A stretch of DNA of 63,161 nucleotides, counting the filler, from Thermodesulfobacteriota bacterium (lineage in GTDB: Bacteria > DASVDK01), in the NCBI GenBank assembly GCA_036381125.1. It is 4 parts of 4 records of this genome, joined end to end, with 100 filler letters (N's around TTAATTAATTAA, not from the genome) between each part and the next. Parts side by side here need not be neighbours in the genome. Positions count along the whole stretch, not along the records: positions 16,159 to 38,257 come from DASVDK010000107.1; 3 more parts are not named here. One strand, given 5' to 3'. Below are positions 16,059 through 60,886 of this stretch, piece by piece. A program made the position numbers and the translations under genes. The notes beneath the pieces were generated by a model. That model was not told the DNA's origin. It made no database searches and was given only the letters and a program-made list of their open reading frames with translations. Each line of letters starts with the position of its first letter. Within the stretch, counting starts at the first letter, position 1.

Positions 16059-16158
16059 NNNNNNNNNNNNNNNNNNNNNNNNNNNNNNNNNNNNNNNNNN
16101 NNTTAATTAATTAANNNNNNNNNNNNNNNNNNNNNNNNNNNNNNNNNNNNNNNNNNNN
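16059..16158. other. assembly spacer (contig join)
   Basis: N run containing the six-frame-stop linker TTAATTAATTAA. Confidence 0.99.
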
Positions 16159-16703
16159 CCGTGCGGGCCCAGCCACGCGCTCGCCTGCGCGACCGCCGCC
16201 GCCGTCGAAGCCCCGAGCGCCTCGCCGGCCGGCACGAGCCGCACGGCCTCGTCCAGATCGAGCTTGCCGGCACGGCGCAGCAGGAGCATCGTCAGGACGA
16301 GTGGTCTGGCGACGGCGCCCGCGCTCACCGCCGCGTCGGGCACGGCCAGCCGCACGACGATGGGCATGTACACGACGGTGACCGGCGGCAGGAGCACCAG
16401 GAGCGTGGCGGCGATCGCCAGGTCGCCCTCGGCGGCTTCCGCCAGCTTGATCAGGAACGGCGCGCCGGCTGCCGTCGCGATCAGGATCAGCCCGACTTCC
16501 AGCGGCCGGTTCGGGCGGAGGGCCTGCACGACGGCGAACGCCAGGAGCGGGACCAGCGCGAAGTTGGCGACGAGCGCACGGATCACGCCGCGCGCGTTGC
16601 GCAGCGGCTCGAGGATCTGCCGCACCGTGTAGCTGAAGCCTACCGACAGCATGCTGCTCACGGCGAAGACCAGCACGGCGAGGCTCGAGAGGAGGTCGGT
16701 CAC
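16159..16703 (-). pseudogene. bile acid:sodium symporter-family fragment fused to an unrelated (possibly SulP/STAS) tail
   Basis: VFAVSSMLSVG...ALVANFALVPLLAF...AAGAPFLIKLA switches abruptly after VLTMLL to RRAGKLDLDEAVRLVPAGEALGAST. Confidence 0.6.
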
Positions 16704-17545
16704 GACGTCTCCCCGTGACGGCGGCCCCCTGGTCGGTCGCCACCGCCGCCCGCGTGCCCGTGCGCGCTCGATCGGCCCTGACCGTCTTGCCCATGCCGTC
16801 CGGTGATGTCGATGTCGGCGGCCTGCTCCTCGCCGGACAGGCAGGCCTCCTCGACCTGGATGGTCGAGAAGTAGACGTGGAAGCGCTGCTTCAACCGGTC
16901 GGTCGCCTCGCGCAGGACCCGCTCCCCATCTTCTGCGAAGCGTCGAACGCAGACGTGTCCGGAGAAGAGGTTGCGCCCGGAGGTCAGGCTCCAGGCGTGG
17001 ACGTGGTGGACGTCCGTGACGCCCTCGATGCTCCGCAGCGCCCCGATCGCCGCGCCGAGGTCGAAGCCTTCCGGCGTGCCCTGCAGGAGGATCCGCAAGG
17101 CCGGGCGGAGGACCCTCCACGACGCCCAGAAGAGCACGAGGCCGAAGGCCATGCCGAGGAGGGGATCGATCGCGAGGAAGCCGGTCGCGCGGATCACCAC
17201 CGCCGACACGACGATGATCAGGCTGCCGACGAAGGTCTGGATGATGTGCCAGAACGCCCCCTTCATGTTCAGGTTGTCCTTCTGGCGCTCGTAGAGGAGC
17301 CGGAACGCGATCAGCTCCGTGATGATCCCGCCGAAGGCCGCGTACAGCATCACGGTCGTCGGCAGCTCGATCGGCTCCCGGAGGCGCATGGCGCCCATCC
17401 AGAGCACGTACGCCGCCATGACGACGAGGAAGACGCCGTTGAACAGGGCGCCGATGATCTCCGCACGGCCCCAGCCGAAGGGGTGCGACGGCGTCGCCGG
17501 CCGTTCGCTCAAGCGCTGCGCGACGAGGGCGATGAGCACGCCTCC
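16700..17545 (-). pseudogene. cation diffusion facilitator (CzcD-like), 5'-truncated
   Basis: FGWGRAEIIGALFNG, NLNMKGAFWHII, ILLQGTP, HHVHAWSLTSG and STIQVE. TM1 and most of TM2 are missing. Confidence 0.75.
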
Positions 17546-17549
17546 GACC

Positions 17550-17765
17550 GCCGCGCCAGCTCGACCACCGACACGTCGGTCGAGGACGCGAACACGTGGA
17601 ACAGGACCGAGAGCGCCACCCCGAGGCCCACGGCAGCCTGGATCGGCAGGGTGAGTGCCGACAGGAACGTCGTGACGCCGGCGATCCGGGAGGGCCAGCC
17701 GGCGCGCCAGACCTCGGCCACGTCCGAGGGGTGGATGCTACGTATGGCGACGACGACGAGCTGAC
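17550..17765 (-). pseudogene. internal fragment of a SulP-family anion transporter
   Basis: VWRAGWPSRIAGVTTFLSALTLPIQAAVGLGVALSVLFHVFASSTDVSVVEL resembles the last SulP TMs before the STAS domain. Confidence 0.55.
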
Positions 17766-18210
17766 GAAGGAGATCGCGCAGAAGCTGGCGAGCCAGACCT
17801 TCCCGAACGCCGAGGCACAGCAGGACTGGTTCTACGGATGGGAGGTCGAGAACTCGAACCCCGACTGGGAGTTCGACGTGGAGGTCGACAACGGGGTGGT
17901 CCAGATGCACGGGACCGTCGGGTCGTTCTCCGACATCCGCCGCGCGGTCGAGACCGCCATCTCGGTGCCGGGCGTGCGCGCCGTGCGCAACGACCTGCGC
18001 GTCGAGGGCCTCCCCTACTACGGGCGCTACTACGGCGGGTACTACGGCCCCTACGGCGCGTACGGTCCGTACGTCTCCGGCCCCTACGACGCCTACGGTC
18101 CGTACGGGCCCCCGATCGTGTACGGCCCGGCCGCGTACGGGACGTCCGGCGCGCAGACCTCTGGCGCCGAGCCCCAGGCGAGCCCGTCGCCCTCGCCCGG
18201 CCAGCAGTAG
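17750..18210 (+). pseudogene. BON-domain protein, 5'-truncated, with Tyr/Gly/Pro-rich tail
   Basis: DDDELTKEIAQKL...FDVEVDNGVVQMHGTVGS...AISVPGVRAVRNDLRV. No proper start is visible. Confidence 0.7.
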
Positions 18211-18397: not shown

Positions 18398-19024
18398 CTA
18401 CCCCGGCGACCTCGCCTGCCGCGCCACCGTGCGCAGCCGGAAGCCGAGCGCGACGAGCACGACCCCGAAGACGATCGCGTAGGCCCCGATCAGCCAGATG
18501 ATCGAGAGGGCGCCCGCCGCGGGGAAGAGCACGACCAGGATCCCGAAGACGACCGACAGGAGGCCGGCCAGCCCGAGCAGCCACTCCCCCTCGATCACCC
18601 TGCGCAGCCGGATGGCCTCGACGATCTCGAAGACGCCGTTCGCGATGGCCCAGATCGCGACGAGCGCGATCAGCGCCACGGCCGTGATGCCGGGGAGGAA
18701 CAGCGTCACCAGGCCGGCCCCGATGCCCACCACCCCCTCGAGGACCAGCGGCCAGCGACGCCCCGTCCAGGTCCGGCCGAAGATGGCCGCCCCGAGGGCG
18801 AAGAGCCCGTTGACGAACGCGTAGGCGCCGAAGAGGGCCACGAGCACGACGAACGTGGCGGCCGGCCAGGCGAACGCCAGCACGCCGAACAGGACGTTGA
18901 GCGCCCCGCGCAGCGCCACCACCCACCAGGACCCGATGAGGGCGCTCTCGAAGGCGGTCCGGACCGGGACCGTGACGGCGTCGTCCACCCCCCGCTCGTC
19001 TCGCCTCGGTCTTCTCGCTTCCAT
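18398..19024 (-). CDS. HdeD/DUF308 family membrane protein
   Basis: WWVVALRGALNVLFGVLAFAWP...AIRLRRVIEGEW...LIGAYAIVFG. Confidence 0.88.
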   Translation of the reverse strand: MEARRPRRDERGVDDAVTVPVRTAFESALIGSWWVVALRGALNVLFGVLAFAWPAATFVVLVALFGAYAFVNGLFALGAAIFGRTWTGRRWPLVLEGVVGIGAGLVTLFLPGITAVALIALVAIWAIANGVFEIVEAIRLRRVIEGEWLLGLAGLLSVVFGILVVLFPAAGALSIIWLIGAYAIVFGVVLVALGFRLRTVARQARSPG

Positions 19025-19160
19025 GCCTGGCAACCTCCTCTCGGGGGCGGCCGTGCTCGAGGAGCCGATCGCCCCCGTCCGGTATGGAGCGGTCCGCCGC
19101 CCTGGCTGCGGTATTGCCGGCCGCCCCGGTGTGGGAGAGCGCGCGCCGAGGGGACGAGCC

Positions 19161-19499
19161 TTACGGTGCGCGGCTGCCCGGGGCGGCCATGGGAAAGCCG
19201 GCCGTCTGCCAGGCGGAGACGCCGCCCTTCAGGGCCTTCACGTTCCGGAAGCCGAGACGTACGTACTGATCGACCCGACCGGCCGAGGTCGCCTCGGCCG
19301 GTCAGCCGCAGTAGAAGACGATCTCCTGTGCCCTGTCCAGGCTCCCCTCGCGCGCGCGGAACTCCGAGAACGAGAGCGAGCCCTCCAGAGCCATCTGGCG
19401 GCACTTCGCGTCGTCCTCGTACGCGCAGACCAGGAGCGCCTGTCCGGATTCGACCGCCCGGCGAGCCTCCTCGGGGCTGATGCGTTCGGCGGTGGCCAT
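19161..19499 (-). CDS. rhodanese-domain protein with in-frame UGA (probable selenocysteine, CGU motif), 112 aa
   Basis: MATAERIS...EIVFYCG-UGA(19302-19304)-PAEATSAGRVDQYVRLGFRNVKALKGGVSAWQTAGFP...TAA. The rhodanese C-terminal signature lies after the UGA. Confidence 0.85.
19272..19301 (-). promoter_or_regulatory. candidate bacterial SECIS hairpin
   Basis: GACC-U-CGG-CCGG-UCG-GGUC begins 11 nt after the UGA (bulged U, G-containing loop). An alternative perfect hairpin is CCGGCCGAGG-CGA-CCUCGGCCGG. Confidence 0.55.
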
Positions 19500-19554
19500 C
19501 GTGCATGCCTCCGGGATGGATGAGGTCGCTCGCTCGACCCGAACCGCAGAGCGG

Positions 19555-19570
19555 TGCAAGCTCCGCGCCC
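19555..19570 (-). promoter_or_regulatory. possible sigma54 promoter for the rhodanese gene
   Basis: GGGCGCGGAGCTTGCA has GG-N10-GC spacing, about 55 nt upstream of the ATG. Confidence 0.4.
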
Positions 19571-19604
19571 CCGCATCGGCGACCAGGCGCCGCAGGAGGA
19601 GCCC

Positions 19605-21310
19605 ATGATCGGACCCGTCGCCCGGCATCTCCTCGTGCTCGTCTCGGCCGCGGCCCTCGCCGCCTGCGGCGGCGGTGGAGGTGGCGGCGGTGGGGGTGGC
19701 GGGGGCGAGGGCGGAACCGGCGCGCCGGCGGCGACCTTCACGAAGGCGGTAGAGCTGCCTACCACGGCCCTCGGCTGGGCAGGGCCCTTCGAGACCGGCG
19801 GCGCCCGCTTCCAGATGCTGGTGCGCGCCCCCGACATCGGCGGCGCCGGGCCGATCCGGTCGATCGCGTTCCGCCTCCACGACGCCGCCGCCGAAGCCAA
19901 CAGCTGTCCGGACGTGACGATCGTCCTGGGCCACACGAGCAAGGCCAACCTCGAGACGACCTTCGCGAACAACGTCGAGGAGGGACGCGGCTCGGCGGCG
20001 GTCGTGCTCGACGGCGCCGTCACGATCCCCGCCGGGGACGCCGGTGACTACGTCACGATCCCCTTCGACGAGCCGTTCCTCTACAACGGCGTCGACAACC
20101 TGGTGGTGGACGTGATCTCGAGCGGGTGCAGCGGGGAGACGACCTTCGAGTCCTCGCAAGCCTCGACTCCGTACACGGCGGTCGTCTGGTCACCCAACAC
20201 GGCGGGGACGACGGGCATCGCCGGGACAGACCTTGCCGACCTCGAGCTGACCTTCGCCGGCGGCGACAACACCCTCGTCTACGCCGCGGGCGCGGCGGTC
20301 GACAACACCATCCCCTTCACGACCGGGGGCACGAGGAAGATCCAGGCCCTCTACCTGGCCGAGGAGATCGACGGCCGCGGCCCCATCACCGCGGTCGGCT
20401 TCCCGGTCGGCAACGACACGAGCACCGCGTGGACCTACACGGTCACCGTGCGGCTCGCCCACTCGACCGACCGCGCCCTTTCGGGCACCTACGCCGACGC
20501 CTACGCCGACACGCCGGTGACGGTCGCCGACGAGGTCCCCTTCGTCGTACCGGCCGGCCTCACGGCCGGGACCTACGTCTGGCTGCCGGCGCCCGACGGG
20601 GTCTTCAGCTACAACGGCGTCGACAACCTCGTCCTGGAGGTCGACGTGAGCACGGCGACCGGCCTCACGCGGTGGCGCATGCGCGACCCGGCCAGCGCCT
20701 CGTGCGGCTCGCCTCGGGGGCGTCGGGCGGCAGCGCCGGCGCCGGCGGGATCGACTGGGTCCCCGACGTGAAGTTCCGCTTCGCCGGCGGGACGATGGAC
20801 GTCATCACGCCCGGAGGGGCCGCCGACGCGGTGCCGTTCGGCCAGTTCGACGGGAAGCGGCAGTACCTGTACCTCGCCAGCGAGCTGGGGAGCGCCGGCA
20901 CCATCACGAAAATCGCCTGCCGGCTCAGCGACCCGCTGGGCTCCGCTGCGGCGACGTACTCCGGGTACGAGGTGGCCATGGGTCACACGACGGCGGCGGC
21001 GCTCGACACCGACTTCGCGGCCAACATGGTCGACGCGACGCAGGTCTTCAGCGGGAGCATCGCGGTGCCGGGTGGGCTCACGCGCGGTGACTGGATCGAG
21101 GTCCCGCTGTCCACGCCGTTCCGCTACAACGGCAAGGACAACCTCGTCGTCCAGTTCGCCGGGCCGGCCGGCACGGTCAACAACAGGTGCATCCTGGATA
21201 ACACGTCCGCGGTGCGCTACGCGAACCGGCGGCTCGCCAGCAACGACCCGGCGGCCGCCAGCGGGACGCTCCTCTCCGACCTCGCCGACATGCGGTTCTT
21301 CGTCCGGTAG
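19605..21310 (+). CDS. lipoprotein with three beta-rich repeat domains, frameshifted near 20690
   Basis: Lipobox LAAC followed by poly-Gly. The motif F.YNG.DNLV occurs three times; repeats 1-2 are in ORF 19554 and repeat 3 is in ORF 20126. Confidence 0.75.
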
Positions 21311-38257: not shown

Positions 38258-38357
38258 NNNNNNNNNNNNNNNNNNNNNNNNNNNNNNNNNNNNNNNNNNN
38301 NTTAATTAATTAANNNNNNNNNNNNNNNNNNNNNNNNNNNNNNNNNNNNNNNNNNNN
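38258..38357. other. assembly spacer (contig join)
   Basis: N run with the TTAATTAATTAA linker. Confidence 0.99.
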
Positions 38358-60786: not shown

Positions 60787-60886
60787 NNNNNNNNNNNNNN
60801 NNNNNNNNNNNNNNNNNNNNNNNNNNNNNNTTAATTAATTAANNNNNNNNNNNNNNNNNNNNNNNNNNNNNNNNNNNNNNNNNNNN
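60787..60886. other. assembly spacer (contig join)
   Basis: N run with the TTAATTAATTAA linker. Confidence 0.99.

Follow-up and report, generated by a model that had tools for sequence, protein, structure and literature searches.

A probable selenocysteine-containing, single-domain rhodanese cut short at an in-frame TGA in a Thermodesulfobacteriota genome

The window analysed here, a stretch of 63,161 nucleotides (nt) joined from contigs of a Thermodesulfobacteriota bacterium (assembly GCA_036381125.1), contains a minus-strand gene at 19499–19161 whose standard translation ends prematurely at an in-frame TGA. We assign this region, with a probability of about 0.88, as a genuine selenoprotein gene encoding a 112-residue stand-alone rhodanese domain, in which the UGA at codon 66 would be decoded as selenocysteine (Sec, U), a step that we infer from the sequence and its relatives. 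An earlier note, made from the sequence alone, had proposed a 112-residue Sec rhodanese with a C-G-U active-site loop that gene callers would truncate, and the proposal is well supported by the conserved TGA, by homologues with cysteine at the same site, by a conserved Sec insertion sequence (SECIS) hairpin, and by the Sec machinery of the genome. Coordinates are those of the whole joined stretch, and the feature is read on the minus strand.

Under translation table 11, the open reading frame (ORF) runs from the ATG at 19499, reads MATAERISPEEARRAVESGQALLVCAYEDDAKCRQMALEGSLSFSEFRAREGSLDRAQEIVFYCG, and halts after ...EIVFYCG at the TGA at 19304–19302. The same frame continues past the TGA for 46 codons, PAEATSAGRVDQYVRLGFRNVKALKGGVSAWQTAGFPMAAPGSRAP, up to the TAA at 19163–19161, such that translation with TGA as U yields a complete gene of 112 codons plus the TAA, with the Sec-TGA as codon 66 and a product that reads ...EIVFYCG-U-PAEATSAGR... 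across the site (U66). The truncated ORF and its same-frame continuation are present as the earlier note had claimed, on the minus strand. The MA..ERI N terminus is a common start in homologues, and a Shine-Dalgarno-like motif precedes the ATG. G+C content is 69–76% across the window. Rfam models found no family up to E = 1 on 19100–19560, and a promoter and terminator scan of 18900–19700 found none. The features of the locus are as follows.

19161..19499, minus strand: probable selenoprotein gene, single-domain rhodanese (translation, Pfam, AlphaFold, Foldseek, frame open in 81/81 loci)
19508..19512, minus strand: GGAGG, Shine-Dalgarno-like, 8 nt 5′ of the ATG (read from the sequence)
19308..19310, minus strand: TGC, Cys64, the canonical catalytic rhodanese cysteine (phmmer and profile alignments)
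19302..19304, minus strand: in-frame TGA, codon 66, predicted to be read as selenocysteine (TGA in 81/81 loci; Cys in homologues)
19270..19286, minus strand: family-conserved hairpin, judged to be the SECIS (pairing conservation, covariation, RNAalifold, energy)
19276..19304, minus strand: genus-specific 13-bp hairpin (minimum-free-energy fold; same minimum in locus L028; not conserved in the family)
19272..19290, minus strand: bulged-U pairing of the earlier note (can be drawn on the sequence; not regarded as the functional pairing)

Relatives of the gene were sought by scanning one genome per species; 165 were found and the best 80 loci were kept, which together with the window gene make 81, some genomes contributing two or three paralogues. 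The 80 loci come from metagenome-assembled genomes (MAGs) labelled Acidobacteriota, Rokubacteria/Methylomirabilota, Thermodesulfobacteriota, Verrucomicrobiia, Brocadiaceae, Nitrospiraceae, Myxococcales, and others. Codon 66 is TGA in all 81 loci, the window included, and in all 80 relatives plain translation halts at the same place and a conserved frame extends beyond it. A same-genus genome, G001, carries the gene at 88% identity to that of the window's own genome, G000, with the same single TGA. The codon two positions upstream, codon 64, is TGC in 41 loci, TGT in 12, and TGA in 28.

Full-length homologues in protein databases most often have cysteine opposite the TGA. An exhaustive search with HMMER yielded 1695 hits at E ≤ 0.001, and the site residues were tallied on the 150 best cluster representatives. 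The site is spanned by 109 of these, with C-x-C in 52, C-x-S in 19, C-x-W, C-x-D, and C-x-G in 4 each, W-x-W in 1, and rarer types; other representatives among the 150 stop at the site, 25 at ..YCx and 15 at ..FY. Cysteine is thus the commonest residue at this position, a pattern classically seen in selenoproteins. The earlier note had asked whether homologues carry Cys or UGA here and had regarded Trp or another non-Cys residue as evidence against Sec; the codon is TGA in 81/81 loci and the residue is Cys in 52/109 proteins, with other residues (C-x-S and C-x-D, for example) occurring as well. Tryptophan at the Sec position or positions (FYWNW, FYWAW, or FYCGW, for example) occurs in P0011, P0074, P0079, P0101, P0184, and P0219, records in which the TGA was probably read under a Trp code by gene callers and so mistranslated.

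The protein itself is a rhodanese. Pfam PF00581 (Rhodanese) matches it at 31 bits (cut-off 22.2), and an AlphaFold model built on an alignment of 42 homologues has a mean predicted local distance difference test score (pLDDT) of 91.7. The top Foldseek hits of this model are all rhodanese domains, with a probability of 1.00 and a query-normalised TM-score of up to 0.73. In phmmer and profile alignments, F62-Y63-C64 aligns with the FYC of 6mxv and of BH2092, so that by alignment Cys64 is the canonical rhodanese catalytic cysteine and Sec66 follows two residues later. The loop C-G-U-P-A-E-A-T-S is two residues longer than that of classical rhodaneses such as 6mxv. Residues invariant in the clade are R6, the ALLVCAY block (with C25), D29, F62, C64, U66, G92, G93, and W97, the invariance of position 64 being that of an alignment with U written as C. 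Glu69, which lies inside the active-site loop, is nearly invariant.

Both the catalytic-Cys and the Sec positions are TGA (F-Y-U-[G/A]-U) in 28 of the 81 loci, most of them from MAGs that carry the label Acidobacteriota. These UxU loci are L030, L038–L041, L044–L047, L050, L055–L058, L062–L064, L067, L070, L085, L089, L090, L094, L095, L098, L100, L102, and L103; each has two UGAs 6 nt apart, 5′ of one conserved hairpin. Further paralogues were observed elsewhere. Another rhodanese-like gene of genome G001 (G001:C396:17203–17508, L117) also contains one in-frame TGA, and no counterpart of it was found in G000. An unrelated genome, G027, has tandem rhodanese paralogues at C60:78192–78476 and C60:78642–78920 (L025 and L027), one with two in-frame TGAs and the other with none, which may be an adjacent Sec/Cys pair.

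The hairpin expected downstream of a Sec codon was examined on 51 nt counted from the TGA, which align without gaps in all 81 loci and comprise 73 distinct sequences. Pairing was scored as the percentage of paired cells relative to 500 shuffles, with slid controls. The conserved element in the window consists of UCGGCC (19286–19281), a GGUCG loop (19280–19276), and GGUCGA (19275–19270); it spans 16–32 nt after the UGA, contains one G-U pair, and corresponds to the pairing of alignment columns 19–24 with 30–35. This pairing is present in 95.7% of cells, 0 of 500 shuffles reach either this value or the covariation score, and the slid controls give 26–51%. The strongest signal comes from a pair between two synonymous wobble positions (UA 42, CG 22, UG 5, GC 3, other 1), with a mutual information of 0.855 bit as opposed to at most 0.266 bit for any other column. 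Bias in G+C at third codon positions (GC3) was considered as the source of this covariation and ruled out: the UA/CG split is equal in the half with low GC3 and the half with high GC3, so the signal, which is specific to the pair, does not stem from base composition. The four inner pairs were independently recovered by RNAalifold. Across the 81 loci, the loop is GGUCA in 57, GGUCG in 8 (the window among them), and GGUCU in 4.

The bacterial SECIS (bSECIS) model calls for a loop of 3–9 nt with a G in the first two loop positions, a stem of 4–16 bp, 16–37 nt from the UGA to the loop, and an energy of −7.5 kcal/mol or lower (PMC13188914). Applied by hand, these published limits accommodate the conserved hairpin, which has a 5-nt loop starting with GG, a 6-bp stem, 21 nt between UGA and loop, and an energy of −9.1 kcal/mol. 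The hairpin is part of the minimum-free-energy (MFE) structure of 49 of the 73 distinct sequences, and of 71 of the 73 once the UGA plus 11 nt are removed.

The earlier note had placed the SECIS elsewhere on nearly the same nucleotides, in an fdhF-like stem with a bulged U, an alternative that we consider quite unlikely. The stem, GACC-U-CGG-(CCGG)-UCG-GGUC, does exist: it can be drawn on the window at 19290–19272, its first base lies 11 nt after the UGA, and its energy is −7.3 kcal/mol, compared with −9.1 kcal/mol for the conserved pairing. Among the 73 distinct homologous sequences, however, only 37.2% of its cells are paired and 191 of 500 shuffles score as high, and it falls outside the bSECIS model in its loop G and, narrowly, in its energy. 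The same nucleotides pair differently in the family, in an arrangement that covaries and that becomes the MFE structure once the nucleotides covered by a ribosome are removed. We therefore reject the bulged-U stem as the SECIS and judge, on comparative grounds, that the 19286–19270 pairing is the probable functional element.

The earlier note had also drawn attention to a perfect hairpin that competes with the SECIS and could modulate read-through. This hairpin, CCGGCCGAGG-CGA-CCUCGGCCGG at 19301–19279, is present and overlaps SECIS nucleotides, but it is not conserved in the family, where its 10 bp are paired in 54.2% of cells, below the shuffles. In the window, it extends to 13 pairs that take in the UGA (UGACCGGCCGAGG, a CGA loop, and CCUCGGCCGGUCG), such that the UGA and the next 10 nt are base-paired to the SECIS loop and its 5′ arm. 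The 13-bp hairpin is the MFE structure (55 nt, −32.8 kcal/mol, z = −3.84, with 0 of 200 shuffles as stable), with the helix alone contributing −26.8 kcal/mol, and it is likewise the MFE structure in the 88%-identical homologue L028. At 10 nt from the UGA, the 10/13-bp hairpin fails the bSECIS spacing. The helix arises from the P-A-E-A-T-S-A-G codons of a genome very rich in G+C, and the family as a whole does not share it.

Removal of the UGA plus at least 11 following nt, approximately the footprint of a ribosome positioned at the UGA, leaves exactly the conserved SECIS as the MFE structure. Because the minimum switches to the SECIS after that removal, the ribosome would be expected to unmask the SECIS in this genus. 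Naked mRNA would favor the 13-bp hairpin, which hides the UGA and the SECIS 5′ arm, and a ribosome reaching the UGA would melt it and allow the SECIS to form.

The machinery for decoding such a codon is largely present in G000, an assembly of 4.33 Mb in 382 contigs that is 96% complete. The selA, selB, and selD genes score above their cut-offs, at 577 bits (cut-off 268), 339 bits (cut-off 242), and 351 bits (cut-off 125), respectively. The selD gene (G000:C156:487–1425, L009) has one in-frame TGA of its own, at C156:517 within ...EYAACAG*ASKLGP..., at what we take to be the catalytic Cys/Sec position, and 18–20 nt after that TGA there is a 9-bp hairpin whose loop is GGC; SelD thus itself appears to be a selenoprotein. 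Two matches resembling the formate dehydrogenase alpha subunit, each with a single in-frame TGA (G000:C349:518–1303, L126, and G000:C171:43–552, L130), are likely further selenoprotein genes of the organism. UGA66 would be a codon for the bacterial SelA/SelB/SelD/tRNA-Sec system, with SelB recruited by the intragenic hairpin, whose 6-bp stem carries a GGUCG loop starting 22 nt after the UGA.

Several observations weigh against the assignment. The tRNA-Sec gene, selC, was not found in G000: the best hits of the RF01852 model there reach at most 46.4 bits and are tRNA-Ser or tRNA-Leu, whole-genome ARAGORN lists 53 tRNAs in G000 with no SeC among them, and BLAST of the G001 tRNA-Sec against G000 gave nothing significant. 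The 13-bp competing hairpin is far more stable than the SECIS (−26.8 vs −9.1 kcal/mol), which bears on decoding efficiency, and the window's SECIS stem has a G-U pair where 80 of the 81 loci have G-C. The score of the window protein against the curated model NF041203 is 57 bits, whereas the cut-off is 115. Run X1, the only one to span the entire stretch, is possibly where this DNA came from, so it adds no independent support. Finally, as no neighbor of the gene is conserved, its biochemical role is argued from motif reasoning alone.

The absence of selC from G000 is most likely due to an assembly gap. In G001 the gene is evident (71.7 bits; cut-off 47), and ARAGORN, which draws its acceptor stem with 8 bp, calls it tRNA-SeC(tca). 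The flank of the G001 selC is 90% identical to the terminal bases of contig C236 in G000, and because this matching flank stops at the edge of C236, selC would have been lost in the gap that follows, where it would be expected about 0.7 kb beyond that edge. Other searches of G000 likewise did not find it: a scan for an anticodon-loop plus T-loop motif general to tRNA-Sec gave two matches only, both in coding-like sequence, and Rfam models gave no match on the loci around selA, selB, and selD. Of the four sel genes that the earlier note had asked for, selA, selB, and selD are found in G000 itself; selC is found in G001 and not in G000. ARAGORN also made two four-base-anticodon calls in G000 (cttc and cctg; C104:2812–2889 and C377:3535–3628), which have 70–84% G+C and poor arms and are probably false positives. 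Of the 60 relatives requested from the reference set, one genome is of the same genus and the other 59 are related at domain level only, and the lineage seems to be very sparsely sampled there.

The missing selC leaves room for a read-through of the UGA without selenium, by Cys or Trp insertion or by near-cognate suppression, and the tryptophan in some public proteins (C-x-W in 4 and W-x-W in 1 of 109) could be taken in the same sense, were it not probably a product of Trp-code gene calling. We regard this explanation as quite unlikely in view of the selA, selB, and selD genes, the last with a classical in-frame TGA, the canonical tRNA-SeC(tca) of G001, and a conserved hairpin whose GGUCR loop fits the SelB-type bSECIS model. 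Moreover, ORFs in the window are delimited normally under table 11, in which TGA is a stop.

A TGA acting as a genuine stop, leaving a 65-residue fragment followed by the remains of a decaying frame or by one open through chance at high G+C, agrees with how public databases present the family. A search of a word-indexed protein database gave 72 matches, of which 60 terminate at F[YF]Cx and another 9 at F[YF]; the remaining matches are one full-length C-x-C protein (P0003, FYCACPAEASAA), one W-x-W, and one frameshifted. Long open frames are, in addition, common at 72–76% G+C. Yet the 35 codons after the TGA are free of in-frame stops in 81/81 loci, compared with stops in 55/81 and 23/81 loci in the other two frames. 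Variation after the TGA is concentrated at third codon positions (entropies of 0.56, 0.68, and 1.33 for codon positions 1, 2, and 3 over the 81 loci), the mean pairwise amino-acid identity is 0.61, and the residues encoded there complete the rhodanese fold with its C-terminal half, for which the structural model is highly confident. Together with the covarying hairpin at SECIS distance and the cysteine at this site in full-length homologues, these observations make a genuine stop very unlikely, and the pattern of substitution argues that the codons downstream of the TGA are coding. The 69 of 72 database homologues whose ends coincide with one or the other TGA position instead bear out the gene-caller truncation that the earlier note had anticipated. 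Two of these homologous fragments, P0002 and P0010, are 65-residue N-terminal pieces named 'ArsR family transcriptional regulator', which looks like a propagated misannotation, and other homologous fragments in public databases are named "hypothetical protein".

A sequencing or assembly error in the MAG, which the earlier note had raised and which the possible origin of the assembly in the sole run over the whole stretch might seem to favor, is extremely unlikely, as the TGA recurs in G001 and in 80 other loci and the covering X1 contig shows 0 differences at a depth of about 8.6. Because the same TGA and a conserved frame are found across the compared loci, an error or a decaying remnant is excluded as its origin. 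Runs X2, X3, and X6 cover the stretch in part, with short contigs that do not settle the TGA codon independently, and no RNA run was among those listed.

With Sec at position 66, the C-x-U center could take up sulfane sulfur or selenium, or could cycle through an intramolecular Cys-S-Se-Sec selenenylsulfide, for which a diselenide would substitute in the 28 UxU loci. The protein would then be a thiol/selenol redox or chalcogen-transfer protein and not a classical thiosulfate:cyanide sulfurtransferase, and the acidic loop would argue against classical anion (thiosulfate) chemistry. Clustering of 1187 flanking ORFs from the 81 loci gave no family in more than 7 loci; given this lack of a conserved neighbor, the protein may act alone or with general partners. 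The CxU and UxU rhodaneses are a reasonable target for enzymology.

The gene lies on C107 (16159–38257), which is flanked in the window by C106 (1–16058) and C108 (38358–60786); runs of N at 16059–16158, 38258–38357, and 60787–60886 mark the joins, across which adjacency is meaningless. The nearby genes are the following.

18398..19033, minus strand: DUF308 (HdeD-like) membrane protein, directly downstream of the selenoprotein gene
17596..18210, plus strand: BON-domain protein, near the selenoprotein gene
16700..17539, minus strand: cation-diffusion-facilitator protein, near the selenoprotein gene

An aldo/keto reductase is also among the window neighbors, and none of the DUF308, BON, and cation-efflux genes is a conserved neighbor in other genomes. 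A divergent ORF of 405 residues at 19554–20771 has no Pfam match; its GGC/GGT-rich segment at 19656–19700 (plus strand) encodes a poly-Gly run that attracts many unrelated metagenomic contigs, with a summed X1 depth above 200.

Selenocysteine-containing rhodaneses are themselves not new, as the earlier note had recognized: CxU and UxU forms are both in print (PMC13188914, PMC9312934, PMC1976440). The selenoprotein families of the Sargasso Sea include a "rhodanese-related sulfurtransferase" (PMC1088965), a UxU form is described in the deltaproteobacterial symbionts of Olavius algarvensis (PMC1976440), and two reviews (PMC13188914, PMC9312934) list a CxU form, named rhodanese-like domain-containing selenoprotein 'form 3' or COG0607 form 2, which they link to NF041203 and whose prediction they attribute to Zhang & Gladyshev 2005. 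The window gene is a homologue of the CxU rhodanese selenoproteins already described and would work like them.

NF041203 (rhodanese_LYCAU), an equivalog model for rhodanese-related (seleno)proteins, is the best NCBIfam hit of the window protein, which aligns over profile positions 21–123 of 126 and resembles that family in its single rhodanese domain, its C-x-U motif, and its intragenic bacterial SECIS. Membership was nevertheless rejected, as the protein has the C-x-U motif (F-Y-C-G-U) but scores below the curated cut-off given above. All 13 tested full-length members of the clade score 51–73 bits, and NF041203 has no match over its cut-off in G000, G001, G007, or G027. The signature of the clade is ALLVCAYEDD ... 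F-Y-C-[AG]-U-P-x-E, whereas NF041203 has L-Y-C-A-U. The window clade is a sister group of the CxU rhodanese selenoproteins that the curated model misses, and because of this its members are systematically truncated, or given Trp, in public protein sets. For the present genome, the correction is from a 65-residue fragment to a predicted 112-residue selenoprotein; a dedicated clade model would fix hundreds of records. The finding adds to the evidence for selenocysteine use in a poorly sampled, very G+C-rich lineage.

A broader proposal can be put forward only tentatively, and we consider it doubtful as a whole: that the clade is a distinct, uncurated rhodanese selenoprotein subfamily, mostly of the Sec form in databases, widespread in soil and sediment phyla, and with UxU forms at about one-third of the loci compared here, and that its lengthened, Glu-bearing loop would carry out selenenylsulfide or diselenide redox chemistry instead of sulfur transfer and, in this genus, the 13-bp hairpin would act as a ribosome-dependent Sec switch.

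Compared by description only, the Olavius UxU form is of the same family type, in line with the 28/81 UxU loci, whereas the window gene keeps C-G-U. The fold is that of E. coli GlpE (1gmx), YgaP, the Francisella protein 6mxv, and BH2092 (3o3w/3nhv), with Foldseek query-normalised TM-scores of 0.63–0.73 and the catalytic Cys aligned. With BH2092, a structural-genomics target of unknown function, the active-site loop aligns without gaps and has the same length. Classical rhodaneses have Arg/Ser-type residues in the active-site loop; neither they nor BH2092 contain Sec, whereas the window protein has Sec66 and the loop residue Glu69. At the RNA level, the small apical loop, short upper stem, 21-nt spacing, and energy of the hairpin agree with the bacterial SECIS consensus model. 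The small apical loop beginning GG-U and the short upper stem are also those of the E. coli fdhF SECIS, in which the lower helix includes the UGA. The fdhF element differs in its bulged U, which the conserved stem of the window does not have, and the 13-bp hairpin mirrors its lower helix but, instead of stacking beneath the SECIS stem, vies with it for the same nucleotides.

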